A stretch of 64,000 nt of DNA from Alphaproteobacteria bacterium (GCA_021774965.1 JAJFIL010000306.1:10741-74740), one strand, 5' to 3'. Shown: positions 12,472 to 37,651, counted from the stretch's first letter. The notes: generated by a model from the letters alone, not told the origin. Made by a program: numbers and translations.

Positions 12472-12480
12472 TTGCCTTCC

Positions 12481-13353: not shown

Positions 13354-13368
13354 GGGCTTGGCTCCTTC

Positions 13369-18049: not shown

Positions 18050-18063
18050 CGTTTGGACCTTTC

Positions 18064-18819: not shown

Positions 18820-21800
18820 TTGGAAGAACTACCCTTATTGCCTGTTTTGGTGCTGCCCTTTCTACTGCCTCTGGCGCTTACCCTGGAGCTGTCTTTGCCG
18901 GTCGTCTGATTGCCTCGGCCATCCGCAACCCCGGGCACAGTTTTGGAAATCACATGGCGATGAGCGATCCAGTCCTTTGCGGGAACCATGCCGCCGGTCG
19001 CCTCGGCGGTAAGATCCTTGCCATACCGTAAGGCATCTACCTGAGCTGGAGCATTTGGAATTTTCTGAATGGCTTCAAGAGCAGGCTCGGTTTCACCCGC
19101 TTCATGGGGCAGGCATTTTTCAACACGAACGCGAAGGTCAAACCACGCCGCCTGGCCTGTGACCGGATCAGAGTTTGAAAAGCGCGCACCATCTTTGCGA
19201 GGGGGCAGCAATTCATCGATCAGGTGATTGAGCAGGAACCCGCGTTTGCTTTCCGGGGCATCTTTAGTAAGCCCCCACGTGCCTTTGCGTTTCCCAATGG
19301 CATTCCATGTCCAAACCGTATTGGGGTTTACACCCTCAACAAGGCGCACCTGAGCTTTCACCCGCCCGATGCGGCTTTCAATCCAGACCCAATCATCGTC
19401 CGCAATACCTTGGGCCGTTGCGGTGCCCGTATGCATATGAAGCCGGTTGGCTGCCGTGATCTGGCGAAGCCAGGCGTTCTGCGATCCCCACGAATGATAC
19501 ATGTGCATAGGGCGCTGGGTCAGCGCATGAAGCGGAAATTCATCTACGCCTTCAGCCTTATCCTCAAAAGGGGCATACCAAATCGGTAAAGGGTCGAAAT
19601 AGGTATCCACGCGTGTCTTGTAACGCTCCGGAGGCTGATGATCTCCGTGGCCCTGGGCTGCGAGGCGAAATTTCTGCAAGGTCTCGGAATAAAGCTGAAA
19701 CACAATTGGCTTGGCCTCTGCCATCCAGCCCATCTTGGTGGCATATTCTAAATAAGCTTGGTTTGCGTGTTTGAAATATTGTTGATCGTCCGGCAGCGTA
19801 TAAGACCAGAACGCACCGTTTTCGATATAGTGATCAAGCTGATTGGGGTTGGGACTTCCGCGGCCTTGTTCGGTCCCGTCTGCCCCGCGCCATCCGGCAA
19901 GAGGCCCCAAGCCCGGCGCGCGTTCATGATGGGTGATGTAATCTGAATAGCCGCCGGGGTAGGTGGGGGAGCCATCCTCATTCGCAAGACCGGGCAAACC
20001 CAGTCGCGCGCCAAGATCAATCAACACATCCTGAAAAGGCCGCACGTCACGATCTGGTTTTACAACGGGATGACGGATCGCATCAGCGGGGCCATGGGCG
20101 CTTGAGATTGGCCGATCAAGAAGCGAGATACAGTCCCAGCGCTCAAGGTAAGTTGTGTCTGGTAGGACAAGATCAGCATAGGCCACCATTTCCGAATGGA
20201 ACGCATCGGAATAGATAATCTTTGGGATTTTGTATTCGCCGTCTTCGTTCTTGTCTGTCAGGTATTTAATCGTGCCAGAAATGTTCATGGAAGAATTCCA
20301 GGCCATATTGGCCATGTACATGAACAAGACATCAACAGTCTGCGGATCTCCTGCCCAGGCGTTTTGCAACACCATGTGCATCAATCCGTGGGCGGATAAT
20401 GGATATTCCCATGAATAGGCTTTGTCGATGCGAAGCGGCTCACCTACCTCATCAACGATCAGGTCTTCGGGTCCTTCTGGTGTGCCCAGCGGCATGCCGG
20501 CAAGGGGTTTGCCGGGCTCACAAACTTTGCCCGCAGGCTTTGGCCCGGATGGAATAGGTTTGGGGAAGGGAGACTTGTTCCGCCACCCCCCCGGCACATC
20601 GACCGACCCCAGCAGGGCTTGAAGAATATGAAGCGCACGGCAGGTATGAAAACCGTTTGAGTGGGCAGAGATACCGCGCATGGCATGAAATGAAACCGGT
20701 CGCCCGATCATTTTCTCATGCTTCCGCCCCCAGGCATCGGTCCATGGGGTATCTATTACAATCTCATGCTCAAAGGCAGCTTCTGCAATTTCCGCGGCAA
20801 TGCGCCGAATGGTATCGGCAGAGATACCGGTCTGATCTGCCACGCGATCCGGCGCATATTCATCCGCCATATAACGGCGGGCCAAAAGCTCAAAGGAAGG
20901 CACTGCCTTGCGGCCATCGGGAAGGGTGCGTGTTCCAGCGAAGGCGGGCTTGAGCTCTGCTTCATTGGCGCTTGTTAGTGCGCCCTTGGAAAGATCAAAG
21001 CATAAAGGGTTGCCATCTTCATCGCGCGCAAACAGGCCATCATCCGCTGCGCCTTCATCCTGGATCACCAACCAAGGCGCGTTGGAATATCGCGCGAGGG
21101 AGGCAAAATCGACCTTCTCGGCTTTAAGGAGCTCATGGATCAGGGAGAAGATGAAGAGACCGTCTGTGCCGGGACGAATACCAACCCACTCGTCTGCGAC
21201 GGCGGAATATCCAGTGCGACAGGGATTGACCGAAACGAACTTAGTGTCGTTCCGTGTTTTCAGGCGGCCGATGCCGGCCTTGATAGGGTTTGAGTCATGA
21301 TCCTCGGCGACACCAAACATCATGAAATAGCGCGTCAGATCCCAGTCAGGATCGCCAAACTCCCAGAAGGCGCTGCCAAGTGTATAGAGACCTCCAGCGG
21401 CCATGTTGACGGAACAAAACCCACCATGGGCCGCGAAGTTTCGCGTGCCGTATTGCTTGGCCCACCAACCGGTCATGGATTGGCTTTGGTCTCGCCCTGT
21501 AAAGAAAGCAAGGCGGGCGGGGTCTTTCGCGCGGGTCTCGCCAAGCCACTTGGTGGCGAGATCCAACGCTTCATCCCATTCGATTTCCTTGAATTCGCCC
21601 TTCCCGCGGTCGCCGACCCGCAGAAGCGGTTTCTGGAGGCGAGCGGGGGAATACTGGTTCATGATCCCGGCTGAGCCCTTGGCGCACAGAACGCCCTTGT
21701 TGATCGGGTGATCGGGATTGCCTTCGATGTAGCGGACGCGCCCATTCTTCAGGTGTACCTTGATGCCGCAGCGGCAGGCACACATGTAGCAAGTCGTCGT

Positions 21801-21887
21801 TTTGATCTCGTCCGAGGTCTTCGAGGAAAGCTCAACATCTTCCCTGACCGTCGCGAACGGGTTTAGCGACACGCGCCTCTCCTCCAC
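18816..21887 (-). CDS. soeA: Molybdopterin (bis-MGD) oxidoreductase catalytic subunit without signal peptide; SoeA-like sulfite dehydrogenase (quinone)
   Basis: 1023 aa. N-terminal FeS motif CYMCACRCG ... LCAKG. No twin-arginine leader, so it faces the cytoplasm. The three-gene A-B-C layout matches SoeABC. Confidence 0.78.
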   Translation of the reverse strand: MEERRVSLNPFATVREDVELSSKTSDEIKTTTCYMCACRCGIKVHLKNGRVRYIEGNPDHPINKGVLCAKGSAGIMNQYSPARLQKPLLRVGDRGKGEFKEIEWDEALDLATKWLGETRAKDPARLAFFTGRDQSQSMTGWWAKQYGTRNFAAHGGFCSVNMAAGGLYTLGSAFWEFGDPDWDLTRYFMMFGVAEDHDSNPIKAGIGRLKTRNDTKFVSVNPCRTGYSAVADEWVGIRPGTDGLFIFSLIHELLKAEKVDFASLARYSNAPWLVIQDEGAADDGLFARDEDGNPLCFDLSKGALTSANEAELKPAFAGTRTLPDGRKAVPSFELLARRYMADEYAPDRVADQTGISADTIRRIAAEIAEAAFEHEIVIDTPWTDAWGRKHEKMIGRPVSFHAMRGISAHSNGFHTCRALHILQALLGSVDVPGGWRNKSPFPKPIPSGPKPAGKVCEPGKPLAGMPLGTPEGPEDLIVDEVGEPLRIDKAYSWEYPLSAHGLMHMVLQNAWAGDPQTVDVLFMYMANMAWNSSMNISGTIKYLTDKNEDGEYKIPKIIYSDAFHSEMVAYADLVLPDTTYLERWDCISLLDRPISSAHGPADAIRHPVVKPDRDVRPFQDVLIDLGARLGLPGLANEDGSPTYPGGYSDYITHHERAPGLGPLAGWRGADGTEQGRGSPNPNQLDHYIENGAFWSYTLPDDQQYFKHANQAYLEYATKMGWMAEAKPIVFQLYSETLQKFRLAAQGHGDHQPPERYKTRVDTYFDPLPIWYAPFEDKAEGVDEFPLHALTQRPMHMYHSWGSQNAWLRQITAANRLHMHTGTATAQGIADDDWVWIESRIGRVKAQVRLVEGVNPNTVWTWNAIGKRKGTWGLTKDAPESKRGFLLNHLIDELLPPRKDGARFSNSDPVTGQAAWFDLRVRVEKCLPHEAGETEPALEAIQKIPNAPAQVDALRYGKDLTAEATGGMVPAKDWIAHRHVISKTVPGVADGRGNQTTGKDSSRVSARGSRKGSTKTGNKGSSSK

Positions 21888-22108: not shown

Positions 22109-23383
22109 TTATTGACCCAGAGTATGGGTCCAGCCAATGGTCACAGCGAACTGGGTCATATCAAGTTCAACCCGGCGACCCGTAGCACCAACTGGCGTCA
22201 TTTCAGGGCCAGACACGGTAGATTCCGGTGCAAACATGACCGCAAAATCAAGCGCGTTGCTGTCACTTGCCTGGTAGGTAAATCCGCCAGTAAAGTGCTG
22301 TTCCATGACACCAGGTGCAAGCACGTTCAGGGTCACGTCTTCAGATCCAATAGGGTTTTCGTTATAGCCAACGCCAAGACGAAGAACCAATTGGTCAGTT
22401 GCGTCATATTCTGCGCCGACCTTGAATGCGTCAACGTCATCCCAACCAAAGCCAGGGCCACCGGACGAACCGAATAGCGTGGTCTTGGTTGTTGAGTTTC
22501 CAACTGCAGCAACCTCACTGTAGTTGATGTGACGATAGTCAGCGACCAGCGTCAGACCATCCATCGGCTCAACCGCAATACCAACCTGGTAGTTCGACGG
22601 GATATCAAAAGAGCCCCGCCCTTCGAACAAGCCAGAATAATCGCTCATCTCACTCATGGAGATAGATGACTGGTAGCTGCCGCCAAGGCTGAAGTGTTGG
22701 CCCAATTCAAGGTCTGCACCAACGCGGACACCAAAACCCGAAGAGGTATCGACACCATTGTCGGTCATATTTGATGGACTAACCGAAGCGCCGGCGAATG
22801 CACCCAGGCCTCTTGCTTCAAACATCTGATAAGCAAAGATCGGTGCAATGCCGACGGAAAAATTGTCGGTCAGTCGGCGAGCATAGCCCACCGTGATGAA
22901 CAGCTGGCTCAGATCAACGCCAGCTCCGCCGCCGCAGAAAATGCCGCTTCCACCACCGCATTCAGGAAAGGAGCGGGAAACGTTGCCGTAATCCGTGTTC
23001 ATGCCGCCATTGCCGTAAGCTGCAATGGAAACTGCAGAGCGGCTATCGATTTGACGAACAAGACCGACATTGGGAATTACAAAGTAATCCGAATCGCTTT
23101 CGGTCTCGCCGACAGGTAAAAACCCACCGCCAGGACTGACGGTAAAGCCACGACGAGGGCTAAACACAGTAGCGCCCAGTGAGAACTGATCTCCGCCGCT
23201 AGTGATACCCGCCGGATTAATCGAAAGAGCCATAGCGTCGGTTGCGTCGGCAACCCCGGCTCCAGCCATTGCAGACTGGCGCGCACCATAGCCGTGCGCA
23301 AAGTACCCTTCTGTTGCGGACGCTGTTGAAACCATCAACAGAGTTGCCGCCGCAGCGAGTGTGAAAGTTAAACCTTTTGCCAT
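22109..23383 (-). CDS. Outer-membrane channel of the FadL/OmpP1/TodX family (hydrophobic-compound transport)
   Basis: Signal peptide MAKGLTFTLAAAATLLMVSTASA followed by TEGYFAHGYGARQSAMAGAG. Aromatic C-terminus of a beta-barrel. AGGAGG RBS lies before the ATG at 23383. Confidence 0.8.
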   Translation of the reverse strand: MAKGLTFTLAAAATLLMVSTASATEGYFAHGYGARQSAMAGAGVADATDAMALSINPAGITSGGDQFSLGATVFSPRRGFTVSPGGGFLPVGETESDSDYFVIPNVGLVRQIDSRSAVSIAAYGNGGMNTDYGNVSRSFPECGGGSGIFCGGGAGVDLSQLFITVGYARRLTDNFSVGIAPIFAYQMFEARGLGAFAGASVSPSNMTDNGVDTSSGFGVRVGADLELGQHFSLGGSYQSSISMSEMSDYSGLFEGRGSFDIPSNYQVGIAVEPMDGLTLVADYRHINYSEVAAVGNSTTKTTLFGSSGGPGFGWDDVDAFKVGAEYDATDQLVLRLGVGYNENPIGSEDVTLNVLAPGVMEQHFTGGFTYQASDSNALDFAVMFAPESTVSGPEMTPVGATGRRVELDMTQFAVTIGWTHTLGQ

Positions 23384-23487
23384 TGTCCCCTCCTGGCGTA
23401 AGTACATTCAGTCCCAAGTCCTGCAATCCACCCCATACTCCCCCAATGGGAACGGATGCAGACTTCAAAACACTTTATGCTGCCTGA

Positions 23488-23715
23488 TTAGGCAGCGCGT
23501 CTGAGCACGAAACGGTAGGTTCCACCGCCTTCATCGTGCTCTACGAGTTCGTTCCCCGTTGTCCGGCAGAACGCCTCGAAATCTTTAACCGAACCCGGGT
23601 CTGTAGATAGAATCTCCAGGGTACTACCGGGTTCCATGGCGCCAAGCGCCTTCTTTGCCTTCAGAATGGGCAAGGGGCAATTCAGCCCCTTCGTGTCCAA
23701 AGTTTGGTCAGCCAT
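23488..23715 (-). CDS. tusA: TusA-family sulfur carrier
   Basis: 75 aa. LDTKGLNCPLPILKAKKAL contains the conserved CPxP persulfide-carrying Cys. Confidence 0.88.
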   Translation of the reverse strand: MADQTLDTKGLNCPLPILKAKKALGAMEPGSTLEILSTDPGSVKDFEAFCRTTGNELVEHDEGGGTYRFVLRRAA

Positions 23716-23751
23716 TCAAGTAACTCCTTACGATTATAGGGGCAATTGTTG

Positions 23752-24267
23752 TTAGATATATAGATTAATGTCAGCTTTGAGCGCATTTTCCATATATGTT
23801 GCAGCGCCGCCAACATCGATGTCCTCAATCATGTCGTCTGTTGAGTATTCAAACAGGTCCAGGGTCATCTGACAGGCGATCATGCGCACATCTGACAGCT
23901 GAGCTGCCTCACGAAGCTCTTCGATAGAGGCCACACCCTTCTTTTTAATCATGTTTTTCATCATGCCGGTGGTAAATGCGGTCACGCCGGGGATCATGCC
24001 GACCATGTTAGGCATGGCCATGTGCATTCCTGCCATCGGCATTTTCATCGCAGCGTTGCCAAGAGGTGACACCTGCATGTCAAGATCTTTCTTAAGAAGC
24101 GTAAGACCGTAAAAAGTAAAGAACATCGTCACGTCTACGTCCATGGCCGCTGCGGTGGTCGCAAGGATGAACGGGGGGTAGGCCCAATCAAGGGTTCCCT
24201 TGGTGACGATAATGGACATGGACTTGGCGTTATCCAGGGAGCCCGCCGGGGCTGTTGCGTCTGACAT
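23752..24267 (-). CDS. DsrE/DsrF-like sulfur-relay protein, DsrE2 (DrsE_2) type
   Basis: 171 aa. Contains IIVTKGTLDWAYPPFILATTAAAMDVDVTMFFTFYGL, a Met-rich loop and the conserved Cys in RMIACQMT. It sits directly upstream of tusA. Confidence 0.8.
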   Translation of the reverse strand: MSDATAPAGSLDNAKSMSIIVTKGTLDWAYPPFILATTAAAMDVDVTMFFTFYGLTLLKKDLDMQVSPLGNAAMKMPMAGMHMAMPNMVGMIPGVTAFTTGMMKNMIKKKGVASIEELREAAQLSDVRMIACQMTLDLFEYSTDDMIEDIDVGGAATYMENALKADINLYI

Positions 24268-24445
24268 ATTCCTACCTCTTCACGTATCTAGCTTTGTTGT
24301 TCACTCGATCACTGATTTCTTGTCGAACTTTCGATCCAGTACCATTCTATTAGCAAATTCGAATATTATGCAATATTAGGTGTCTGAATGCCCTGTCGTC
24401 TACAGAAAAATTACGAACTTGACTAAGCCCACTCTCTCCAAAGCC

Positions 24446-25570
24446 ATGAAGAACAAGGCAAAGCGCGGCTCAGCGCTCATATCTCACCCTCTTTTCACGG
24501 CTGCGGATTGGGGGCCGCATCACCCCTTGGGTGCTGGACGGCACCGGAGCGTTACACAGCTTTGTGGCCATTTGGGCTGGATGAGCCCCGATCATCTCCA
24601 CGAAATCGAGCCTGCATCGGTCCAGACGCTCCTGCAACTTCACGACGCTCAATATATAGAGGCGTTTCAGGCGGCCTCAAAGGCAGGCCGTGTCAGCCAG
24701 GAGGCCCGCAAGAAATACAAGTTCGGGACGATGGAAAACCCCATATTTCCTCACGTTTTTGAACGAGCTGCGGCAACGGTCAGCGGCTCGATCAAGGCCG
24801 CTGAACTTGCCATGGAAGGTCAGTTTGTCTTTCACCCTGCCGGCGGCACCCACCACGGCAAACGTGACCAAGCCAGCGGCTTTTGCTATTTCAACGATCC
24901 TGCTTTTGCCATTCTCACCCTGTTGGAAGCAGGCGTTGCCCCGGTACTCTATGTGGATCTGGACGCCCATCACGGCGATGGGGTCGAAGCCATTTTTGCC
25001 AATGATCCCCGGGTCTTCATGATCTCGATCCACGAAGCAGGGCGCTGGCCCTATACTGGATCCTTGGAGGACCGGGCAGGGGGGAACGCCCGAAATCTCC
25101 CCGTCCCCAAAGGCTTTCATGATGCTGAATTGCGCTTCCTGTTTGAGGAGGTAGTCCTCCCAAAAATGGCGGAAATCTGCCCCCAAGCGGTGGTGATGAC
25201 GTGCGGGGCGGACAGTCTTCACGGGGATCCGCTGTCAGGAATGGAGCTTTCCAATGTGGCATTATGGGATGTGATTGAGGAGATCGCGGAGCAGGCCCCG
25301 GCCAGCATCGCCCTTGGGGGAGGGGGCTATAATCCCTGGACCGTCGCACGGTTTTGGTCAGGCCTTTGGGGCCGTCTGGCAGGATTTTCCCCGGCACCAA
25401 ACCCCTTGCCTGCTGCGGCCCTTGAGTTGCTCCAGGGGCTTTCCTCGGATCTGGTGGACGAAGATGAGATCGAGCCTCAATGGCTCAATCAGCTGGATGA
25501 TGAGCCCCAAGCGCCCAAACCCGTGCGCGAGGATATCCGGGGAATAGCCTTGGCCGCTAAGTCAAATTAA
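24446..25570 (+). CDS. Histone-deacetylase-family Zn amidohydrolase (AcuC / acetylpolyamine amidohydrolase-like)
   Basis: Motifs GGTHHG, ASGFCYFND, DLDAHHGDGVE and GGGGYN. The track ORF begins at GTG 24380. I prefer ATG 24446 (MKNKAKRGSALISHP), but this is unresolved. Confidence 0.8.
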   Translation: MKNKAKRGSALISHPLFTAADWGPHHPLGAGRHRSVTQLCGHLGWMSPDHLHEIEPASVQTLLQLHDAQYIEAFQAASKAGRVSQEARKKYKFGTMENPIFPHVFERAAATVSGSIKAAELAMEGQFVFHPAGGTHHGKRDQASGFCYFNDPAFAILTLLEAGVAPVLYVDLDAHHGDGVEAIFANDPRVFMISIHEAGRWPYTGSLEDRAGGNARNLPVPKGFHDAELRFLFEEVVLPKMAEICPQAVVMTCGADSLHGDPLSGMELSNVALWDVIEEIAEQAPASIALGGGGYNPWTVARFWSGLWGRLAGFSPAPNPLPAAALELLQGLSSDLVDEDEIEPQWLNQLDDEPQAPKPVREDIRGIALAAKSN

Positions 25571-25710
25571 GTGCTGAAATTGTCCTTTATCGGACAAAAT
25601 TTTACTTGGAATTGTCCTGAAATTGTTCCGAATTTACCCTAGGGTTTACAAACCCACCAAAGCGCTGGACCTCTCGTTTTTCCCATGCTTTTATATTAGG
25701 TAAATCGAAT

Positions 25711-26757
25711 ATGAGGAATCGCATGAGCTGGCTCGAGCAAATTTCTGAAATCGAGGCTTTGGAAGACGCAGAGCTTGATGGCGCTCTTATTGACAGGATG
25801 GAGGCCCAGGCGGCTCTCATCAAAAACCGGCCCATCCGCTTTTCGACCCCGACCTTCCGTGAGTACGAAAGCACCGAATTATCCGGCTGCGGCAAAAATA
25901 GTTTCCCCGCCTTTTCCATCACGGCGGGGGGCTGTGCGCTCAACTGCGATCATTGCCAGAAGAAGATCCTGGAGCCGATGATCCCGGCCACCAAACCTGA
26001 AATGCTGGATCAGAAAGTCCGTGATCTGATCATGATGCAGGGCCTTCAAGGGTTCCTTCTGTCTGGTGGCTCCAACAAACAAAATGAAATCCGCTACGAG
26101 CGATTTTATCCTGTCGTAGAAGGACTAAAGCGAGACTTCCCTGATCTCAAGATTGCCATTCACACAGCATTGACCGATGAAGCCGGTGCAAAGCGGATGG
26201 AATCTGCCGGTGTTGATACGGCCATGATGGATGTCATCGGATCCGATGAGACCATCAAGCAGGTATACAATCTTGACCGCCCAGTAGAAGACTTCGAAGC
26301 AACCCTCGCGGCACTTACCTCTACAAGCATGGAAATCTCACCGCACATCGTGGTGGGGCTGCACTATGGTGAGATCCTGGGCGAGGAACGGGCGTTGGAT
26401 ATTGTAGCGCGCCACGATGTGAATGCATTGGTGCTTGTGGTGATCATGCCGTTCTATGCCAAGCCTGGTACGTTTAAAACACCCTCCACCAGCGACGTGG
26501 GCAATATCTTTGTTGCTGCAAGGCAGCGTCTTGCGGACAAGCAAGTTCTTCTGGGTTGTGGCCGTCCGGCAGGCATGCACAAGCGCGTTACAGATGCCTA
26601 TGCGGTGATGGCGGGTATCGATGGCATTGCCTTTCCTGCGGATGGTGCTGTCGCTGTTGCGGAAAGCGTAGGCCGGCCGTTCGAGCAGGCTCACTCTTGT
26701 TGCTCGATCAAGCTTGGTGAAAACTCTGGCGCTGCCAAATCAGTTTGCGCTGCGTAG
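25711..26757 (+). CDS. Radical SAM protein, LipS1/LipS2-type (alternative lipoyl synthase component)
   Basis: 348 aa. CX3CX2C as CALNCDHCQ, an extra Cys 15 residues upstream, and a C-terminal CC pair (HSCCS). It lies in an operon with the lipoate ligase. Confidence 0.78.
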   Translation: MRNRMSWLEQISEIEALEDAELDGALIDRMEAQAALIKNRPIRFSTPTFREYESTELSGCGKNSFPAFSITAGGCALNCDHCQKKILEPMIPATKPEMLDQKVRDLIMMQGLQGFLLSGGSNKQNEIRYERFYPVVEGLKRDFPDLKIAIHTALTDEAGAKRMESAGVDTAMMDVIGSDETIKQVYNLDRPVEDFEATLAALTSTSMEISPHIVVGLHYGEILGEERALDIVARHDVNALVLVVIMPFYAKPGTFKTPSTSDVGNIFVAARQRLADKQVLLGCGRPAGMHKRVTDAYAVMAGIDGIAFPADGAVAVAESVGRPFEQAHSCCSIKLGENSGAAKSVCAA

Positions 26758-26784
26758 TCTCTCAAAAGTCATTAGGAAATAGAC

Positions 26785-28083
26785 ATGACGTGTTTGAAAC
26801 CTGAATCTACAATCCCAGGGGAAACCGGCGCCGGGGGAGGGGACTTTAACGCAGCCAGTGCCATGCACCCGCGCGCGCCAGAGGCAATCCCCAGCGATCT
26901 CAAAAACGGTGGTCGGGTAAAATCAAATTCCGTGGCGCCGGAAGGGCTCTATCTGCCCAACAGAAATATCCTGACCCCCCAGATGACTTCGCCTGAATAT
27001 GTTCAGCTCTCAACCGCTGCGGCCATCACCCTTGGCATCATGCCAGGAAAGATGCATGGCTGCGAATGCACGCGCTGTCTCAATATCCTGCTGACCTATC
27101 CTGAAGGCTGCCGTGCTAATTGCGCCTATTGCGGCCTTGCCCGCCACCGCGAGGCGGAGCGGGATTATGCGGACCGGAATTTCATTCGCGTGGATTGGCC
27201 TGCTGTTCCGATGGAACAAATTGCAGAAACGGTTGGCAAGGACCCGGAAGCCAGCCCGTTCCACCGCATGTGCATTTCCATGATCACGCATCCGAAGTCT
27301 GATAAGGATACAGTCTCTGTACTGAAGACCTGGACGAAATATGTAGACCCGGATGCGATCCCCATTTCCATTCTGTCCAACCCTACCACCATGGTCCGGG
27401 ACGATGTGCAAACCCTGCGAGATCTGGGCTCTGACATCTTCACCGTGGCGCTGGATGCAGCGACACCGGAGCTTTTTGACCGCACCCGCGGCAAGGGTGT
27501 TCAATCGCCTCATACCTGGAAAAAATACTGGGAAATTCTCGAAGACGCGCGGGACATTTTCGGGCCCCAGAAATTTGGCGCACATATCATTGTGGGCATG
27601 GGTGAGACCGAACAGGAAATTCTGACCCTCGTTCAGCGTCTGGTGGACATGGGCGGCCACAGTCACATGTTCTGTTTCTATCCCGAACAAGGCTCGCTGA
27701 TGGATCATTTGCCCGCCACCCCGCGCGACCAATGGCGGCGGGTTCAGCTGGCGCGCTATCTGATCGATTACTGCGACGTGCGCGTCGACCACATGAAATT
27801 CGACAGCGAAGGCCGGGTTGCTGATTTCGGTATTCCCAAGGCGGAGCTGGAAATTACCATCGATAGCGGCATTGCCTTCCGCACCAGCGGTTGTCCCGGC
27901 AAATTTGCTGAAGATATCTCTGCCTGTGACCGTCCGTATGGGGATAGTCCAGTTTCTGATATCGCCAGCTATCCCTTCCAGCCAGAGGGTGCGCATATGC
28001 GCCGCATCCGCTCGCAACTTGATATGTTGCGTCCTGGGGAAACCTATGAAGACGGCGAAGAATTCGAGGAGCTTGATAGTTGA
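26785..28083 (+). CDS. Radical SAM protein, LipS1/LipS2-type (second component)
   Basis: 432 aa. CX3CX2C as CRANCAYCG, preceded by an additional CECTRC cluster-like motif. Confidence 0.78.
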   Translation: MTCLKPESTIPGETGAGGGDFNAASAMHPRAPEAIPSDLKNGGRVKSNSVAPEGLYLPNRNILTPQMTSPEYVQLSTAAAITLGIMPGKMHGCECTRCLNILLTYPEGCRANCAYCGLARHREAERDYADRNFIRVDWPAVPMEQIAETVGKDPEASPFHRMCISMITHPKSDKDTVSVLKTWTKYVDPDAIPISILSNPTTMVRDDVQTLRDLGSDIFTVALDAATPELFDRTRGKGVQSPHTWKKYWEILEDARDIFGPQKFGAHIIVGMGETEQEILTLVQRLVDMGGHSHMFCFYPEQGSLMDHLPATPRDQWRRVQLARYLIDYCDVRVDHMKFDSEGRVADFGIPKAELEITIDSGIAFRTSGCPGKFAEDISACDRPYGDSPVSDIASYPFQPEGAHMRRIRSQLDMLRPGETYEDGEEFEELDS

Positions 28084-29183
28084 TGGGCAATCAATTCCGC
28101 ATCATTGATACGGGCGTTCGCGAAGGCCGCGCCAATATCGCGTTCGACCAAGCCATGATTGATGCGCGCCAGGAAGGCGCTATTCCTAACACCATCCGCT
28201 TTATTCATTTTCCCCCGACCGCTCTGGTGGGTCGCCATCAGGCATTGAGCCAGGAATTGAAAGTAGAGCAATGCAAAGCCAATGGGGTGGGTATTGTTCG
28301 GCGCATTACTGGCGGCGGGGCCATTTATTTGGACGAAGGCCAACTCGGCTGGGCCATCGTGTGTGATCGCGCCGCTTTGGGTGTGCCTGACTTAGGCGGA
28401 ATTACAAAAGCGATTTGCGAGGCCGCAGCATTCGGGCTTTCCAAGCTCGGCATTGATGCCCAGTTCCGTCCGCGGAATGACATTGAAGTGGACGGACGCA
28501 AGATCTCCGGGACCGGAGGGTTCTTTGACGGGGAAACATTGATCTTCCAGGGCACCGTGCTGATTGACCTTAACCCTAGCGATATGCTGGCAGCGCTTAA
28601 TGTGCCGGAAGTCAAACTTGCCAAACGCGACTTGGATAATGCCGCCGCCCGGGTGACTTGCCTTAAGGAATTGCTGGGCGAGGCCCCTTCCATGGAGGCG
28701 GTGAAGGGCGCCCTCATCGCCGGGTTTGAGGAAAAACTCGGCCTCACCGTAGAGCACAGCGAGCCCACGCAAGCAGAAGAAGATGCAGCCAAGCAGCTCT
28801 ATGACGAAGAGTTCGGCACGGACGAATTTGTCTATGAGATTGATGACCCTGCCCGAGAAAAAGGTGTCCGCATTGGTTCCTTCGTCGGAGCAGGCGGCAC
28901 CGCCACGGCGCATGTGCGCCTGGAAGGGGTTGGCGGGGACCGCATCCGCGAGGTGCTTCTTACCGGTGATTTCTTTATCGCACCGCCCCGCATTATCTTT
29001 GATCTTGAATCAAGTCTGCGCGGTGTGCGGGTGGAAAAGGCGGGCGAGCATATTGGTGAATTCTTTGAGGAGGCCAATGTGAGCTTGCTCTCCATCACGC
29101 CTTCGGATTTTGCCGCAGCAGTTGATATCGCCACGGGCCAGCGCGCACCGCAGGCAGCTGCCACCAGCGAGCCAGCCACGTGA
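28083..29183 (+). CDS. Lipoate-protein ligase with fused C-terminal accessory domain, sLpl(AB)-type
   Basis: Motifs IRFIHFPPTALVGRHQ, RRITGGGAIYLD and GRKISGTGG (LplA catalytic Lys region). About 367 aa, long enough to include the LplB-like domain. The ATG overlaps the upstream TGA. Confidence 0.85.
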   Translation: MGNQFRIIDTGVREGRANIAFDQAMIDARQEGAIPNTIRFIHFPPTALVGRHQALSQELKVEQCKANGVGIVRRITGGGAIYLDEGQLGWAIVCDRAALGVPDLGGITKAICEAAAFGLSKLGIDAQFRPRNDIEVDGRKISGTGGFFDGETLIFQGTVLIDLNPSDMLAALNVPEVKLAKRDLDNAAARVTCLKELLGEAPSMEAVKGALIAGFEEKLGLTVEHSEPTQAEEDAAKQLYDEEFGTDEFVYEIDDPAREKGVRIGSFVGAGGTATAHVRLEGVGGDRIREVLLTGDFFIAPPRIIFDLESSLRGVRVEKAGEHIGEFFEEANVSLLSITPSDFAAAVDIATGQRAPQAAATSEPAT

Positions 29184-29917
29184 AGACCCTTACGGTACTT
29201 CAGCATACATCCGCAGAATACCTGGGCTTGCTGGAAGACCATTTCGAAGGTCGCCGCATTCGGTTCAATTATGTGCGCCCTTTTACCGAAGGCGTTACCA
29301 TTCCCAATCCACAAGTGATCGGCGATGGCCTTGTGCTTCTGGGCGGGGGGCCGTGGGGTTCTGCCGGAGGGCAAGTGGGTTCTGCAGGCGCGCGTGATGT
29401 TCCCACGTTGGAGAAAGAAGTCCTGGTCGCCAAAGCCTGTTTGATGATGGGCAAACCGATCATCGCTTTTGGGCTGGGGGCTCAAATCTTGTGTCTTGCC
29501 GCGGATGGCGGCGTTGAGGTGGCTCCGCTTGTCTTTGAAGCAGGTTTTGCAACCCGTACGGATGATGAGGCCCTAAACGGTTATTTACCGGCGCGCTTCC
29601 CCCATGTGACCTACATGCGGGATCGTCCGGTTCCGCCGGACTATGCGCAAATTCTTGCGGTCGATAGTCACAATCGCCCTGCGGTCTTTCAGATCGGCGA
29701 AAAGGCGTTTGGCTTTACCGGGCATCCCGGTTTCAAGCTGGCCATGGCTGAAGATTTGATCATGGAGTTTGAGGAGTGCCCGGAAGAGACCGCAAAACCC
29801 ATTTCCGAATTGAGGGAAATGAAGGGGGAAATCGAAGATGCGCTGGTCTCGATTATGACAGGCCTTGTCCAGAAAACCGGGCTTATGGACAGCTCAGACG
29901 ATAAGTCAAAATCCTAA
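29180..29917 (+). CDS. Class I glutamine-amidotransferase-like protein lacking the catalytic Cys and Glu
   Basis: 245 aa. The nucleophile-elbow position reads FGLGAQ (Leu where G-x-C-x-G has Cys). The HPE position reads FGFTGHPGF (Gly for Glu). GTGA start/stop overlap with the ligase gene. Confidence 0.7.
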   Translation: MKTLTVLQHTSAEYLGLLEDHFEGRRIRFNYVRPFTEGVTIPNPQVIGDGLVLLGGGPWGSAGGQVGSAGARDVPTLEKEVLVAKACLMMGKPIIAFGLGAQILCLAADGGVEVAPLVFEAGFATRTDDEALNGYLPARFPHVTYMRDRPVPPDYAQILAVDSHNRPAVFQIGEKAFGFTGHPGFKLAMAEDLIMEFEECPEETAKPISELREMKGEIEDALVSIMTGLVQKTGLMDSSDDKSKS

Positions 29918-29941
29918 ATGTGTAGGAAGGCGGTTGCTTAA

Positions 29942-29957
29942 ATTAGACTTGTCTAAT
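29942..29957. promoter_or_regulatory. Perfect 16-bp palindrome ATTAGACTTGTCTAAT upstream of dsrE3-shdr; candidate operator
   Basis: Read directly from the sequence. It lies in the 150-bp gap between the lipoate module and the shdr operon, about 110 bp before the dsrE3-like start. Confidence 0.35.
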
Positions 29958-30067
29958 AAACTACCCTGAGCGGGCGCAAATATCGCCTAATGCTCTGTAT
30001 TTTGGGCATTTTTTGAAATAATCAACGGCGCAAAAATGCGCTACTATTGACCGGGAGGTTGGGACAA

Positions 30068-30448
30068 ATGTCCAACAGCAAACTTGTAATTATTATGGCG
30101 AATACCAATCCATCTCACCGCGAAGAACTCGGGGCCCCTATTTTTCAGGCCACCGTCGCTGCTGCCATGGAATATGAAGTCGATGTGATCTGCACCGCCG
30201 CCTCTGGCATTCTGATGAAAGTAGGCGAAGCAGAAAAGCTGACCATCAAGGAAGGCTCCCCCAAGACCGTTTATGATTTTATCAAAGATGCTCATGAAGC
30301 GGGTGTGAAGTTTTACAGCTGCTCCCCCAATCTTGAACTTTTCGACATGGAACCTGGTGATTTGATCCCAGAGTGCGAAGGCCTTGTGGGTGGTGCGCAC
30401 CTGATCGAAATGGTCATGGAAGACGACTGCGAAGTTCTGACCTACTAA
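30068..30448 (+). CDS. DsrE-family sulfur-relay protein, DsrE3-type
   Basis: 126 aa from the ATG with a GGGAGG RBS. Begins MSNSKLVIIMANTN and has the conserved Cys in KFYSCSPN. First gene of the shdr operon. Confidence 0.8.
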   Translation: MSNSKLVIIMANTNPSHREELGAPIFQATVAAAMEYEVDVICTAASGILMKVGEAEKLTIKEGSPKTVYDFIKDAHEAGVKFYSCSPNLELFDMEPGDLIPECEGLVGGAHLIEMVMEDDCEVLTY

Positions 30449-30472
30449 GTCAGTTGAGATCTGAGGGACTGG

Positions 30473-31222
30473 ATGTCACACGCGACAACATCACGTAAGC
30501 AGGAACACATCGGCGATCCGGTATCGGACAAACCGCCGGTTTCCCGGGACAAGCTTGAGGAAATCTTCCAGGATATCCAGGCGGACCTGCGCTATGACTT
30601 CGAGCTCAATGGATGTTTGAACTGCGGCATCTGCACGGCAACGTGCCCCTCCGCTCACTATTACGATTACTCCCCTCGCGAGATTGTTCAACTTCTGTGG
30701 ACGGAGAATCTGGAAGGCATCTATGATGCCATGCAGGAAAAGATCTGGTCCTGCGCTCAGTGCTACACTTGCGCCGCGCGCTGCCCGTTTGGGAATTCCC
30801 CGGGCGGGCTGGTGATGTTGATGCGCGAAGTGGCCATCAAGCACGGGATGGAATCAGCCAAGAACGTGCTGCGTCCGTTCTCCCGCGTGATGCTGAAGCT
30901 GATCTCGACCGGCAACCAACTCTCCCCCGATATGATCAACCCGGATCACTTTGCCGACTGGGGCCCGAATATCTCGAAGATCGATGCGCCTCTTGCTGTC
31001 TTAAGACGCGCCATTCCCATGCCGACCCTGAACACGATCAAGACCGCCTGGGAAGTGAACCTGAAAACATCCGTGGAGCTTTACACCATCTGGGAAGCCA
31101 GCGGTGTTCTCGATCAGCTGGAGACGATCGATGAAGATCTCTTCGACGTCATTACCGACATCATGGATGAGAAACGTGAAGACTGGGACGATTTCCTGGA
31201 AGAGCAGGAAGACGAGGACTAA
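30473..31222 (+). CDS. hdrC1: sHdrC1, heterodisulfide-reductase-like FeS subunit C
   Basis: Two ferredoxin-type motifs, CLNCGICTATCP and CAQCYTCAARCP, and an acidic C-terminal tail. Confidence 0.85.
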   Translation: MSHATTSRKQEHIGDPVSDKPPVSRDKLEEIFQDIQADLRYDFELNGCLNCGICTATCPSAHYYDYSPREIVQLLWTENLEGIYDAMQEKIWSCAQCYTCAARCPFGNSPGGLVMLMREVAIKHGMESAKNVLRPFSRVMLKLISTGNQLSPDMINPDHFADWGPNISKIDAPLAVLRRAIPMPTLNTIKTAWEVNLKTSVELYTIWEASGVLDQLETIDEDLFDVITDIMDEKREDWDDFLEEQEDED

Positions 31223-31280
31223 GCCTCGACTAACCTGCCGTATCGGAAATTGAACTCACGAGTTGAGGAAGGAAGAGAAA

Positions 31281-32639
31281 ATGGACAACACCAAAGAACC
31301 CGGCGAACGCTTTACAGGCCATGGCTCCGAGTGGCGAGATTCCAATCTCAGTACGGAAGATGCCACCCGCGCTACAGCCTGGGTTGAGCAAAAGATCAAC
31401 AAACGCTCCATGCTCACCAACAAGGATCGCGTCCATGATGTTCGCGATATCATGTGGGACCTGGAAAAAGACGGCGAGATCGTCGTTCATCGGGTCAAGG
31501 ACGAGCATGAGCCCGTCATGGCCAAGACCCTTTATGGCTGGGACAAGAAAATCCCAACCAATCAGCTGTGGCATCACAAATCCTGCGGCCAGTGCGGCAA
31601 TATCCCGGGCTATCCGGCGTCTCTTCTGTGGCTGATGAACGAGCAAGGCACGCGCTATCTCGACGAGACGGATCAGACCTCGTGCACAGCGTGGAACTAT
31701 CACGGCTCAGGCATTGGCAACATCGTCAGCCTTGCCGCTGTCTTCCTGCGCAATTTCCACCAAGCTTATGTTTCAGCAAAAGCCGAAGGTCTCGACGAAG
31801 GCTATTACTATCCGCTGGTTCACTGCGGCACGTCTTTTGGCAACTACAAGGAAGTGCGCGAGTACCTGATGCATTCCGCCGAATTGCGCGAGCAGGTCAA
31901 AGTCATCTTGGGCAAGCTGGATCGTCTTGTGGACGGCAAGCTGCTGATCCCCGAAGAGATCGTGCATTATTCTGAGTGGACGCACGTCATGCGCCACAAG
32001 ATCGCGGAACGTCAGACAATCGACGCCTCAAACATCCGTGCCACCGTTCACTCTGCCTGTCACGTCTACAAGATGGTGCCGCAGGATGTGATCTATGATG
32101 ATGACGTGCTGGACGGCGAGCGGGTTGCTGTCTCCACCGGCATCATGGAAGCGCTTGGTGCTCAGGCCATCGACTATTCCACCTGGTATGATTGCTGCGG
32201 CTTTGGTTTCCGCCACATTATTTCCGAGCGGGAATTCACGCGCTCCTATGCCATTGATCGCAAGATCAAGGTCATGGTGGAAGAAGCCAACTCAGACGTT
32301 CTGATCGGTCACGATACAGGCTGCATTACCACGTTTGACAAGAACCAGTGGATCGGCAACGCCAAGGGCGAAAGCTACGATCTGCCGGTTCTCGCCGATG
32401 TACAGTTCGCAGCATTGGTGTGCGGCGCGCATCCATACAAGATTGTGCAGTCTCATTGGCATGCGTCATCGACAGAAAAACTGTTTGAAAAGCTCGGCAT
32501 AGATTGGCGGGCAAAGAAGGCAGAGTTTGAAGACTATCTGAAACAAATCGAGGCCGGTGGTGCGCAGGAGAATCTCTATGATCCTCGTCGCATGATCACT
32601 GGTGGCCCCGGATATCAAAAGATTGAACAGGTAAAATGA
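31281..32639 (+). CDS. hdrB1: sHdrB1, CCG-domain subunit
   Basis: About 452 aa from the ATG with a GAGGAAGGAAG RBS. CCG motif WYDCCGFGFRH. Confidence 0.85.
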   Translation: MDNTKEPGERFTGHGSEWRDSNLSTEDATRATAWVEQKINKRSMLTNKDRVHDVRDIMWDLEKDGEIVVHRVKDEHEPVMAKTLYGWDKKIPTNQLWHHKSCGQCGNIPGYPASLLWLMNEQGTRYLDETDQTSCTAWNYHGSGIGNIVSLAAVFLRNFHQAYVSAKAEGLDEGYYYPLVHCGTSFGNYKEVREYLMHSAELREQVKVILGKLDRLVDGKLLIPEEIVHYSEWTHVMRHKIAERQTIDASNIRATVHSACHVYKMVPQDVIYDDDVLDGERVAVSTGIMEALGAQAIDYSTWYDCCGFGFRHIISEREFTRSYAIDRKIKVMVEEANSDVLIGHDTGCITTFDKNQWIGNAKGESYDLPVLADVQFAALVCGAHPYKIVQSHWHASSTEKLFEKLGIDWRAKKAEFEDYLKQIEAGGAQENLYDPRRMITGGPGYQKIEQVK

Positions 32640-33685
32640 CGAAAACCGTTCTTGTTGTAGGGGGCGGGCCAGCCGGGCTGTCCACCGCTCACGCTCTGGC
32701 TCAGGCCGGTCAACATGTGACCCTCGTGGAAAAGGAAGATCGCCTCGGCGGTGCACCTATCCTTGATGGCTATGCCAAACTTGTTCCTTCCGGGGAATGG
32801 GCGAAGGATGCCATCGGCGGCATGGTGGATCGGGTGACCGACAATCCGAATGTCGATGTGCGACTGAACACCAAGGTGGACAAGTTCGACGGCGAGATCG
32901 GTAACTTCACCGCGGCCTTGTCCGACGGCCAGCAAGTCGAAGCGGCCTCAACGGTTCTCACCACCGGCTTTACTCACTTCGATAGCATCAACAAGCCCGA
33001 GTGGGGCTTTGGCATGTACCCCGACGTGGTCACCACCACGCAAGTAGAACAGATGATTTCTTCGGGCAACGGCGTGCGTCGTCCTTCCAATGGCGAAAAG
33101 CCAAAGCGCGTTGCCATCCTGTTGTGCGTGGGCTCCCGCGACCGGCAGATCGGCCGTGAGTGGTGCTCCAAGATCTGTTGCACCGTTTCTGCAAATCTGG
33201 CCATGGAAATTCGCGAAGAGCTGCCCGACTGCCACGTCTATGTCTATTACATGGACATCCGCACCTTCGGATTGTTGGAGACCAAATACTACTGGCGCTC
33301 TCAGGAAGAGTTCAAAGTTAAATACATCAAGGCACGGATCGCTGAGGTCACGTCAGACGGCGACAAGGTCATCGTCAAAGGCGAAGACACGCTTGTTAAA
33401 CGCCCCATCACCATTCCTTTTGACATGGTGGTGCATGCAATTGGTATGGACCCTAATGTGGACAACATGCTGATCTCCACGATCTTTGACGTGAAGCTGG
33501 AGCCAAACGGTTTTCTTGACCGGGAAAATTCCTATGCCGGCATGGGTGCAACAAACCGCCCCGGCGTTTTCGTTGCAGGCTCTGCCACTGGCCCTGAAAC
33601 CATTGACGACAGCATCGCCCAAGGTCAGGCGGCAGCTATCTCGGCACTGAACGTGGCGCGCGGCACAGCATCGGCAGCGGAGTAA
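32636..33685 (+). CDS. hdrA: sHdrA, short FAD/[4Fe-4S] flavoprotein
   Basis: 349 aa. Dinucleotide fold VLVVGGGPAGLS and cluster ligands CVGSRD ... WCSKICC. ATGA overlap with hdrB1. Confidence 0.9.
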   Translation: MTKTVLVVGGGPAGLSTAHALAQAGQHVTLVEKEDRLGGAPILDGYAKLVPSGEWAKDAIGGMVDRVTDNPNVDVRLNTKVDKFDGEIGNFTAALSDGQQVEAASTVLTTGFTHFDSINKPEWGFGMYPDVVTTTQVEQMISSGNGVRRPSNGEKPKRVAILLCVGSRDRQIGREWCSKICCTVSANLAMEIREELPDCHVYVYYMDIRTFGLLETKYYWRSQEEFKVKYIKARIAEVTSDGDKVIVKGEDTLVKRPITIPFDMVVHAIGMDPNVDNMLISTIFDVKLEPNGFLDRENSYAGMGATNRPGVFVAGSATGPETIDDSIAQGQAAAISALNVARGTASAAE

Positions 33686-33694
33686 CCAGCACCC

Positions 33695-34567
33695 ATGGCC
33701 TCGTTCTTCTCCAATCGCAACGCTCGGAGCACTGCCAAGACCCATGAGGTCCTGGAGCGCCCAACCCTCGACTTGAGCGGGCCGGCATTGAGCTATGCGT
33801 TGGAGCAATTAGGCGCGGGATGTGAAGCGGAAGGCGGCATCGACCGTTTTGTCATGGCGCTGAAACTGCGCGGTGATGCGTTCAAGGATATATTGCTGGA
33901 CAAGCCCATGGCAGACGTCACGGCGGAAGAGTTCGCTTCTTTGACGACCTTCATGCCAACGGTGCGCCGACGTATTGGACCCTATCTGGAACCACTTTTG
34001 TTTCCAAAACTCCAAAGTACCTTGGCGACGCTTCTTGAGGGCACCCACGAGCCCACCAAAGTAGACGCGCGTATAGAGGCGTTCTGTACGTCTTATCCAG
34101 CTGACAAGGCCCACCGCTGGGTCAGAGATCTGGCGGCAGAGGTTCTTCATGCGACAGATTCTGATCGCATCCCGCTTATGTGTCGCTGGGTCTGGAACGA
34201 GAAATCCAACACCGGCGTTTTGCGCGAGATTTGGCATGGAGATGTGGATGGCGAGACCATTCGCATCGCGGATAATTACGCGACCTTTGTGATGCTGCGC
34301 GAGGAGCTGTCCCAGTTTCTGACTTCCAAAGGCGTATTTCAGGAAGTGGCCTGCTATATCGATCTAATGTGCGCGCAGGTTTATGCCGAATACATTTCTG
34401 CGCAAGGCGGCAGCTATTTGCGGGCAGATTTTTCGGCGGCAGATGACCCCATGGCCCATGTGCGCCGCCTGTTGGGGCTTGATGGTGTGAAGGCCAAACT
34501 GAACGTAGACAACAATGACAGACAAAATGGTGCGAGTGAAATCACTGCGCTTGTTGAGGGGAGATAG
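33695..34567 (+). CDS. Conserved hypothetical protein embedded in the shdr operon (hyp)
   Basis: 290-aa clean ORF in the canonical position between shdrA and shdrC2. No recognisable cofactor motif. Confidence 0.7.
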   Translation: MASFFSNRNARSTAKTHEVLERPTLDLSGPALSYALEQLGAGCEAEGGIDRFVMALKLRGDAFKDILLDKPMADVTAEEFASLTTFMPTVRRRIGPYLEPLLFPKLQSTLATLLEGTHEPTKVDARIEAFCTSYPADKAHRWVRDLAAEVLHATDSDRIPLMCRWVWNEKSNTGVLREIWHGDVDGETIRIADNYATFVMLREELSQFLTSKGVFQEVACYIDLMCAQVYAEYISAQGGSYLRADFSAADDPMAHVRRLLGLDGVKAKLNVDNNDRQNGASEITALVEGR

Positions 34568-34573
34568 GGCTTA

Positions 34574-35359
34574 ATGCCTATCCATGAAAAAAGCCTGATC
34601 CGGCCAGAGGACCTTACGACCCACGATGATTTGGTCATCGATGGCATTGATGTGTCTGGCGACTGGAGCACCTTCATTAATACCCGCGTTGTGGCGGACT
34701 ACAATGAAGAGATGCAGGATGAAATCGCGGCCCTGCCCGGCGGGGAATACATTCATCGCTGCTGGCAATGTGGGTCTTGCACCAACGCATGCACCATCAA
34801 TGAGCTTAATCCTGATTTTAATCCACGGTACTGGATCTATTTGATCCGCATGGGATATGAATCCGAACTTCTGCGCGACAAGGACCTGATCTGGCAATGC
34901 GTGTCGTGCAATAAATGCACGTCTGCCTGTCCGCGCGATGTGGTGCCGGAAGGCGTCATGAAGGCGACTGCGCACTGGCTGGAGTTGAAAGGCCATACGG
35001 CGAAAACGCCGTCCACAGAGTTTGACGAAGAGTTCAGCCATCAGGTCTTCAAGACCGGCAAGATTGAAGATGGAGAGGTCTTCCTGGGCTTTTTCAAACG
35101 CACAGGCCAGAGCCCTTTTCAGGACTGGATTTTCCAGATGGGCAAGCAGTTGGCGTTCAAGTTTCCCATCACCATGTTGATCAAGATGGGCTGGGCAACC
35201 CTGTTCCACCCTCGCACCCGGAATTGGGGCCCGGCGCGCGATGCCATCAACGAATATATCGAAGAACAGGAAGCAGAGATCAGATTGACGCTCAAACTTG
35301 ATGAGCCCAAGCCTGCTGCCGACAAAGATCCCGCACCTACACAACAAGCGGCTGAATAG
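34574..35359 (+). CDS. hdrC2: sHdrC2
   Basis: Motifs CWQCGSCTNAC and CVSCNKCTSACP. Confidence 0.85.
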   Translation: MPIHEKSLIRPEDLTTHDDLVIDGIDVSGDWSTFINTRVVADYNEEMQDEIAALPGGEYIHRCWQCGSCTNACTINELNPDFNPRYWIYLIRMGYESELLRDKDLIWQCVSCNKCTSACPRDVVPEGVMKATAHWLELKGHTAKTPSTEFDEEFSHQVFKTGKIEDGEVFLGFFKRTGQSPFQDWIFQMGKQLAFKFPITMLIKMGWATLFHPRTRNWGPARDAINEYIEEQEAEIRLTLKLDEPKPAADKDPAPTQQAAE

Positions 35360-35370
35360 GACGAGTACAG

Positions 35371-36725: not shown

Positions 36726-36742
36726 TATAGGTGACCAAAACC

Positions 36743-37183
36743 ATGACTGATGTACGCGGATGCCACCTCGAAGATAGTCTTCTCTATGACGTGGAAAACC
36801 ACATCTGGTTCAAGGAGCTGGATGATGGAAAGGTGAAACTGGGCATGACCACAATCGCCACGGCCATGGCCGGTGAGATTGTAGCCTTTACCCCTAAAAA
36901 AGTTGGTCGTTCGGTTAAGGAGGGCAAATCCTGCGGCACCGTCGAATCAGGCAAATGGGTGGGACCAGCCAAATCTGCTGCTGCTGGTGAGGTTATCGAG
37001 GTCAATGAGGCGCTTGTGGCCAAGCCAAACATGGCTAATGAAGATCCGTATGATACGGGCTGGATGGTGATTTTGGCCCCGGAAAACTGGGATGCAGTCA
37101 AAGGCACGTTAACCCCAGGAACAGAAGTTGGCCCCAAATATGAGGCCAAAATGGAAGCTGACGGTTTCGAAGGTTGCGGATAG
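36743..37183 (+). CDS. lbpA: LbpA, GcvH-like lipoate-binding protein of the sHdr system
   Basis: GcvH fold length. The lipoyl-Lys context CGTVESGKWVGP fits the ESxKW type found in LbpA rather than glycine-cleavage H. AGGTGA RBS lies before the ATG at 36743. Confidence 0.85.
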   Translation: MTDVRGCHLEDSLLYDVENHIWFKELDDGKVKLGMTTIATAMAGEIVAFTPKKVGRSVKEGKSCGTVESGKWVGPAKSAAAGEVIEVNEALVAKPNMANEDPYDTGWMVILAPENWDAVKGTLTPGTEVGPKYEAKMEADGFEGCG

Positions 37184-37633: not shown

Positions 37634-37651
37634 TTCTGAAGGCTCTTGCGC

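Follow-up and report, generated by a model that had tools for sequence, protein, structure and literature searches.

Background

Maturation of the lipoate-binding protein LbpA by a ligase, sLpl(AB), and two radical S-adenosylmethionine (SAM) proteins, LipS1 and LipS2, was described by Cao 2018 (PMC6067878), where the canonical lipoylation machinery was also found not to modify LbpA, and was demonstrated by Tanabe 2023 (PMC10332631). In the latter study an in-frame deletion of slpl(AB) in Hyphomicrobium denitrificans supplied genetic evidence for the pathway, and the genes of Thioalkalivibrio sp. K90mix, carried on the helper plasmid pACYC-Tklpm, modified LbpA in Escherichia coli. A further protein, the flavoprotein LipT, has been proposed as the electron donor where it occurs. 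According to the same study it is encoded by ~53% of the bacteria with LipS1/S2 and by 17% of the archaea, and ~47% of these bacteria have no lipT in the whole genome. LipS1 and LipS2 of Thermococcus kodakarensis function in vitro with dithionite and without LipT, and mutagenesis of the two proteins identified C230, C276, C277 and probably H159 as the ligands of the auxiliary [4Fe-4S] cluster in LipS1, and C85, C276, C279 and probably H178 as those in LipS2 (Neti 2022, PMC9585515). Here we examine a lipoate-assembly locus of four genes, at positions 25711-29917 of a 64,000-nucleotide stretch from an Alphaproteobacteria bacterium (GCA_021774965.1, JAJFIL010000306.1:10741-74740; the whole stretch is called the window below). 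The interpretation that we favor, at a probability of roughly 85%, is that the four genes form a dedicated LbpA maturation module of a sulfur-oxidizing, CO2-fixing alphaproteobacterium, in which a clean deletion has removed lipT from the lipS1/lipS2 junction.

The lipoate-assembly locus

The module consists of four co-directional open reading frames (ORFs) on the plus strand, found exactly where a preliminary description of this DNA had placed them, directly 5' of the shdr operon: lipS1 (25711-26757, 348 aa) and lipS2 (26785-28083, 432 aa), encoding the radical SAM lipoyl synthase subunits of NCBIfam NF053742 and NF053743, slpl(AB) (28083-29183, 366 aa from an ATG), encoding a lipoate/octanoate:protein ligase to which an LplB-like domain is fused at the C-terminus, and lipX (29180-29917, 245 aa, GTG start), whose product has a class-I glutamine amidotransferase fold. 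The 27-bp lipS1/lipS2 spacer (26758-26784), which holds an AGGAAA ribosome-binding site, and the two stop/start overlaps, TGATG between lipS2 and slpl(AB) (28081-28085) and GTGA between slpl(AB) and lipX (29180-29183), also lie as first described. The order 3' of lipX is dsrE3C-shdrC1B1AHC2B2-hyp-lbpA, all on the plus strand: the first gene of the shdr operon encodes a DsrE3C-like sulfurtransferase (30047-30448; Pfam DrsE_2, 36.8 bits) and is followed by shdrC1-shdrB1-shdrA-shdrH-shdrC2-shdrB2 (30473-36300), with matches to the HdrC, HdrB and HdrA families and with CCG and Fer4 domains, then by a hypothetical gene, and finally by lbpA (36731-37183), encoding a GcvH-like lipoate-binding protein (Pfam GCV_H, 108.9 bits) whose target lysine is K75 in VESGKW. 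The locus thus has what defines an sHdr-LbpA system, namely shdrC1B1AHC2B2 together with a GcvH-like LbpA bearing the expected lysine, and the lbpA product is the presumed substrate of the lipoate-assembly module.

Family assignment of LipS1, LipS2 and the ligase

Among the NCBIfam models, NF053742 matched LipS1 with 193.5 bits (E=5e-57; next best family, 28.8 bits) and NF053743 matched LipS2 with 187.6 bits (E=3e-55); for both proteins, other families reached 39 bits at most. In sLpl(AB), the catalytic domain LplA-B_cat (Pfam PF21948) scored 151.6 bits at residues 16-216 and the full-length lipoate-protein ligase model TIGR00545 scored 154.6 bits at residues 7-333, while the LplB match at the C-terminus (residues 285-350) scored 47.1 bits, below the LplB cutoff of 65. 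The ligase carries GRKISGTG, whose lysine we take to be the counterpart of the catalytic K133 of E. coli LplA (motif RK[VI]SG). With LipS1 and LipS2 as by far the best matches, and a ligase made up of an LplA domain and an LplB-like C-terminus, the original assignment of the module to the sLpl(AB)/LipS1/LipS2 route holds. By homology, LipS2 would insert sulfur at C8 and LipS1 at C6. Sequence searches of the PDB with the two proteins gave no match at E<0.01.

It could be argued that the radical SAM pair are not lipoyl synthases at all, and that they belong to BioB, HydE, PqqE or some other family with a different role in sulfur oxidation. Close homologues are publicly named 'biotin synthase' or 'radical SAM protein', and the scores of both proteins fall below the NCBIfam equivalog cutoffs of 230 bits for LipS1 and 270 bits for LipS2. 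However, the comparison with unrelated families, which the preliminary description had named as a possible refutation, went clearly against this alternative, since BioB reached just 18-27 bits, against 188-194 bits for the LipS1 and LipS2 models. Moreover, all the experimentally defined auxiliary ligands of the T. kodakarensis proteins are kept, and the Thioalkalivibrio orthologues do modify LbpA in E. coli (Tanabe 2023, PMC10332631). We therefore consider this alternative highly improbable and already refuted for the most part. The low scores are a property of the clade, because LipS1 and LipS2 of L006, a lipT-carrying relative, score alike (188.3 bits each). With the LipS2 model, a 50%-identical representative (P0123) scored 180.5 bits and an archaeal-type sequence (P0257) 304.2 bits. 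The LipS1 model, likewise, fits archaeal-type sequences best, and its low score is seen clade-wide. The closest match to LipS2, at 83% identity, is from a metagenome-assembled genome (MAG) of Parvularculaceae, and the host appears from its sequence to be related to Parvularculaceae and Hyphomonadaceae.

Natural fusions of the two radical SAM proteins also exist, both as LipS2-LipS1 (683 and 675 aa) and as LipS1-LipS2 (645 aa) (P0125, P0135, P0201; L203 5001-7052). Two metagenome contigs carry the P0125 fusion, in a cluster of the order tusA-dsrE2-flavoprotein-fusion-ligase(+DUF116). In five Hyphomicrobium-type loci (L056, L057, L058, L062 and L071), LipS2 homologues of 75-76% identity stand without lipS1, ligase, lipX or shdr genes within 8 kb, and in one of the genomes concerned, JALHOW01, lipT is found on another contig (L197). 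These isolated homologues may represent a second context for LipS2, or a paralogue.

Cluster-ligand cysteines

Every cysteine motif that the preliminary description had quoted is present, including the CX3CX2C of both radical SAM proteins. LipS1 has C75-x3-C79-x2-C82 (CALNCDHC, residues 75-82; kept in all aligned sequences), a lone Cys60 located 15 residues N-terminal of this motif, and C330/C331 within HSCCS, and LipS2 has CRANCAYC at residues 109-116 and C93/C95/C98 within CECTRC. The proposal that the cysteines outside the radical SAM motif ligate the auxiliary cluster stood for the CC of HSCCS and failed for Cys60 of LipS1 and CECTRC of LipS2, which are not conserved across the family. In an alignment of the window LipS2 with 40 diverse full-length representatives (29-50% identity), C113, C163, C370 and C381 were invariant in 41/41, and C109, C116 and H267 were each present in 40/41. 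The T. kodakarensis counterparts of these residues, by offset, are C39/43/46, C85, H178, C276 and C279, and distant LipS2 representatives reproduce the T. kodakarensis spacing (+46, +139, +237 and CX2C). The last two ligand cysteines are separated by 8-10 residues in the clade of the window, and form a CX10C in the window protein itself. For LipS1, the distant sequences were three LipS1 domains of naturally occurring fusions. All three keep C75/C79/C82, H151, H212, C283, C330 and C331, and C283, C330, C331, H151 and H212 are kept in 66 clade sequences (H212 in 65/66), with offsets from the radical SAM motif of +208/+255/+256/+137 compared to +203/+249/+250/+132 in T. kodakarensis. Archaeal LipS1 sequences were also sought through the loci of the archaeal-type LipS2 P0257, which led to two Thermoplasmatota loci, neither of them with lipS1 nearby. 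The predicted family-wide auxiliary ligands are thus C283/C330/C331/H212 in LipS1 and C163/C370/C381/H267 in LipS2.

The remaining cysteines have a very different distribution. C93 and C95 of LipS2 are present in just 2-3 of the 41 diverse sequences, and the position of C98, occupied by Cys in 14/41 and by Thr in 24/41, aligns with T28 of T. kodakarensis LipS2, which is near the auxiliary cluster and can be mutated without effect (Neti 2022, PMC9585515). Within the alphaproteobacterial clade, however, C93, C95 and C98 are invariant in 119/119 sequences, and C3 and C297 are found in 117-118 of the 119. Similarly, Cys60 of LipS1 is not conserved in the three distant LipS1 domains and is invariant in 66/66 clade sequences. 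These extra cysteines may have a role specific to the clade, and could form an additional metal or sulfur-relay site.

Absence and recurrent loss of lipT

The reference for our lipT searches was the LipT of L006, a 371-aa protein of the geranylgeranyl-reductase family (TIGR02032, 190.5 bits). As a tblastn query against the 64-kb window its best match had E=0.84, and a LipT profile hidden Markov model (HMM) built from 22 sequences gave at most 19.9 bits against the six-frame ORFs of the window, in Rossmann/FAD-motif matches to sHdrA and to an OYE-type flavoprotein. The earlier observation that the window holds no lipT was therefore upheld. The same cannot be said of the implied unusualness of such a locus. 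In a survey of 80 related alphaproteobacterial loci, 65 had both lipS1 and lipS2 (66 with the window), and lipT stands between these two genes in 47/66 and is missing from that site in 19/66. Among LipS1/S2 bacteria at large, LipT is encoded by ~53% (Tanabe 2023, PMC10332631). The lack of lipT is a common and already documented variant. It is shared by the nearest three relatives (L001-L003, MAGs of the Parvularculaceae type with LipS2 81-83% identical) and, beyond the alphaproteobacteria, by a Xanthomonadales (gammaproteobacterial) MAG with the cluster HDAC-lipS1-lipS2-slpl(AB).

When the state of lipT was mapped by parsimony on a neighbor-joining tree of LipS1+LipS2 from the 66 loci, at least nine state changes were needed, and the root state was lipT present. 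The lipT-carrying loci have an ORF of ~1.1 kb at the site of the spacer, overlapping both neighboring genes, and the lipT-less loci have short lipS1/lipS2 spacers that are unrelated among lineages, which points to independent clean deletions. A trivial explanation for the junction in the window would be an error of assembly or binning that dropped lipT, and the window does come from a metagenome-type contig of ~83 kb. Yet both flanking ORFs are full length and have native termini of the same type as in lipT-carrying relatives, and the identical architecture recurs in 18 independent assemblies, so that an artefact can be given only the slightest of chances.

A more serious alternative is that the pathway in this organism still uses LipT, with lipT simply relocated to a part of the genome beyond the 64-kb window. 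There is precedent for such mobility. Maturation genes that are unlinked to hdr-lbpA can be encoded elsewhere (Cao 2018, PMC6067878), and the gene order of the module is plastic: in L203 lipT precedes a gene in which lipS2 and lipS1 are fused, and in Thioalkalivibrio it follows slpl(AB). Nevertheless, lipT was found neither in the window nor in the ~8 kb that flank lipS2 on each side in the 18 lipT-less relatives. None of the assemblies of these relatives was among the best 80 of at least 562 LipT-encoding loci, nor, in another scan, among the 51 loci listed as matches. Genome-wide absence of lipT in ~47% of LipS1/S2 bacteria (Tanabe 2023, PMC10332631) also speaks against a displaced copy, and we regard relocation as unlikely.

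Three candidates for a replacement of LipT were considered and rejected. The N-terminal extension of LipS2 does not appear to be a substitute, because the length of LipS2 and its N-terminal cysteines are shared by the lipT-carrying L006 and 118 other close homologues. LipX and the HDAC-like protein described below were set aside since both occur with and without lipT.

LipX and a deacylase gene upstream of lipS1

The preliminary description had called the fourth gene product GATase-like, which is right as to the fold and doubtful as to the activity. LipX shows distant kinship to class-I glutamine amidotransferases (NCBIfam PRK07053, 46.8 bits), and although Pfam gave no match at E<0.01, a profile search against the PDB found 9xfs (E=1e-15) and 1o1y (E=4e-11), as well as 3l7n and 3m3p. 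In these alignments Gly98 takes the place of the nucleophile Cys of GICLGAQ and Gly184 that of the Glu of H-x-E, leaving His182 as the only member of the Cys-His-Glu triad that is kept, and Gly98, His182 and Gly184 are invariant in 14 orthologues. Without the Cys and the Glu of the triad, LipX is unlikely to act as an amidotransferase, and in spite of its GATase1 fold it probably is not one.

Directly 5' of lipS1 lies a gene for an HDAC/AcuC-type Zn-dependent deacylase (24380-25570, plus strand), whose start in public data is ~22 codons 3' of the start at 24380. The protein matches Pfam Hist_deacetyl with 227 bits, its top-scoring counterpart in the PDB is Aquifex HDLP (1c3r, E=7e-56), and its catalytic motifs HH158, DLDAHHGDG193, GAD276 and GGGY314 (the His pair, the Zn ligands and the tyrosine) are intact. 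The gene adjoins lipS1 on the upstream side in 35/61 alphaproteobacterial loci, and another 11 have it at some other place in the locus. It is also directly 5' of lipS1 in two MAGs, one of Xanthomonadales and one of Burkholderiales, and in an unclassified ENA metagenome contig whose gene order is the same. Its coordinates in other loci are 7001-8197 (L200), 7001-8242 (L201) and 7001-8239 (L202). Its association with the lip genes persists in those Rhodobacterales-type loci in which no shdr gene is nearby. It is missing from the five Hyphomicrobiaceae/Methyloligellaceae loci whose upstream sequence was long enough to tell (L027, L035, L041, L051 and L076). We found no mention of a linkage between the HDAC-like gene and the lip genes in Cao 2018 (PMC6067878), in Tanabe 2023 (PMC10332631) or by full-text literature search.

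It is probable that the HDAC-like gene is the first gene of the lip operon, and it may be an unrecognized accessory gene of the lipoate-assembly module. Acting on the LbpA lysine, the enzyme could remove an acetyl group that blocks it, or acyl groups that are mis-attached or only partly thiolated, or could serve as a lipoamidase. A broader interpretation, tentative and on balance doubtful, would combine these observations into a larger lip module of Alpha-, Beta- and Gammaproteobacteria in which the HDAC-type product of the leading gene acts on the LbpA lysine, LipX is a catalytically dead partner, and LipS1/S2 run on general reductants in the lineages without lipT.

The region of 140 bp between the HDAC-like gene and lipS1 (25571-25710) contains the sequence AATTGTCC twice, at 25578 and 25610, and an imperfect palindrome, TTGTCC-N6-GGACAA, at 25580-25597, which may be candidate operator elements for an ArsR-type regulator. 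The frequency of AATTGTCC 5' of lipS1 is not above chance, and a promoter/terminator scan of 23600-30600 gave signals not clearly above shuffled expectation.

A proposed pathway and its weak points

The roles set out here are read from homology, including the order of the reactions, the substrate and the source of electrons. In the proposed pathway, sLpl(AB) would use ATP to activate free octanoate (or lipoate), which it would attach to the lysine of VESGKW in LbpA. LipS2, with SAM and with a sacrificial auxiliary [4Fe-4S] cluster held by C163, C370, C381 and H267, would then add sulfur at C8, after which LipS1, with a cluster held by C283, C330, C331 and H212, would add sulfur at C6. The lip genes are translationally coupled and are located directly 5' of dsrE3C-shdr-lbpA. 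The electrons for SAM cleavage would presumably come from a general ferredoxin/flavodoxin system, as for LipA, or else from LipT, if a copy of its gene is present in another part of the genome.

Several points weigh against our interpretation of the four genes as a dedicated LbpA maturation module with a clean loss of lipT. As noted, LipS1 with 193.5 bits and LipS2 with 187.6 bits both stay below their cutoffs (230 and 270). The T. kodakarensis ligands were mapped by residue offsets and through archaeal-type representatives. The module of this organism is known from sequence alone. Finally, our view extends over a window of 64 kb, and it is possible that lipT is located elsewhere, or that a canonical LipA/LipB also serves LbpA.

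Taken by itself, the finding matters little, since it adds another instance of a pathway already published, here in an alphaproteobacterium that is uncultured, autotrophic and sulfur-oxidizing. Our local sample agrees with the tabulation of Tanabe 2023 (PMC10332631), in that LipT would be dispensable or replaceable in many lineages. That clean loss of lipT is recurrent, with at least nine changes among 66 loci, argues that LipT is accessory rather than core, and sharpens the question of what reduces LipS1/S2 in vivo. The HDAC-like gene and the triad-less LipX are modest leads to the missing accessory functions of the pathway.

Other genes of the window

Outside the lip and shdr genes, the window encodes a cbb (Calvin-cycle) cluster on the minus strand (7464-15472) with the RuBisCO large subunit, a class-II fructose-bisphosphate (FBP) aldolase, transketolase, phosphoribulokinase and FBPase, a 125-aa ORF at the position of the small subunit, and a divergent LysR (CbbR-like) regulator alongside. 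At 17099-21887, also on the minus strand, a molybdopterin oxidoreductase of 1023 aa is encoded together with a 4Fe-4S subunit and a membrane anchor of the DmsC type, and the three may form a SoeABC-like sulfite dehydrogenase matching the product of sHdr. Divergent from the HDAC-lip operon, at 22109-24267 on the minus strand, lie genes for an outer-membrane transporter of the FadL/TodX type (432 aa) and for DsrE2 (217.6 bits, higher than its cutoff), and the FadL-type protein could be related to octanoate or lipoate uptake (compare LipY). The RuBisCO/Calvin operon, the molybdoenzyme, the FadL-type protein and DsrE2 together fit a chemolithoautotrophic sulfur oxidizer. Beyond lbpA, in the region 37262-42276, an ArsR/BigR-type regulator gene (sHdrR/SoxR-like; 37262-37633, plus strand; NCBIfam BigR 82.4 bits, Pfam HTH_5 49.8 bits) faces a second ArsR-type gene (37652-38068, minus strand), and the pair is followed by genes for an RND efflux pair, an HlyD-type adaptor and an AcrB-type pump.

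Comparison with known systems

The closest described cluster is that of H. denitrificans, where lipS1-(lipT)-lipS2-slpl(AB)-lipX stands in the same order 5' of dsrE3C-shdrC1B1AHC2B2-hyp-lbpA, with GTGA/ATGA overlaps of stop and start codons at the ligase gene and with a regulator of the ArsR type in the vicinity. It differs from the window in that lipT takes the place of the 27-bp spacer, and the window has in addition an HDAC/AcuC-like gene 5' of lipS1. In Thioalkalivibrio sp. K90mix (lipS1-slpl(AB)-lipT-lipS2-lipY) the same three core enzymes are encoded as in the window, in a different gene order, with lipT and lipY present and without lipX. With LipS1 (TK2109) and LipS2 (TK2248) of T. kodakarensis, the two window proteins share a CX3CX2C and, in each protein, a set of three Cys and one His for the auxiliary [4Fe-4S] cluster at equivalent offsets; by contrast, lipS1 and lipS2 are unlinked in that archaeon, and identity is ~30%. 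Compared to the T. kodakarensis protein, LipS2 of the window has CX10C instead of CX2C, an N-terminal extension of ~70 residues and the extra clade cysteines C3, C93, C95, C98 and C297. The LipB/LipA or LplA routes of E. coli share with the route of the window a lipoyl-lysine product and a radical SAM chemistry in which a sacrificial cluster supplies the sulfur, but there LipA alone, with its CX4CX5C auxiliary motif, inserts both sulfurs, at C6 first.

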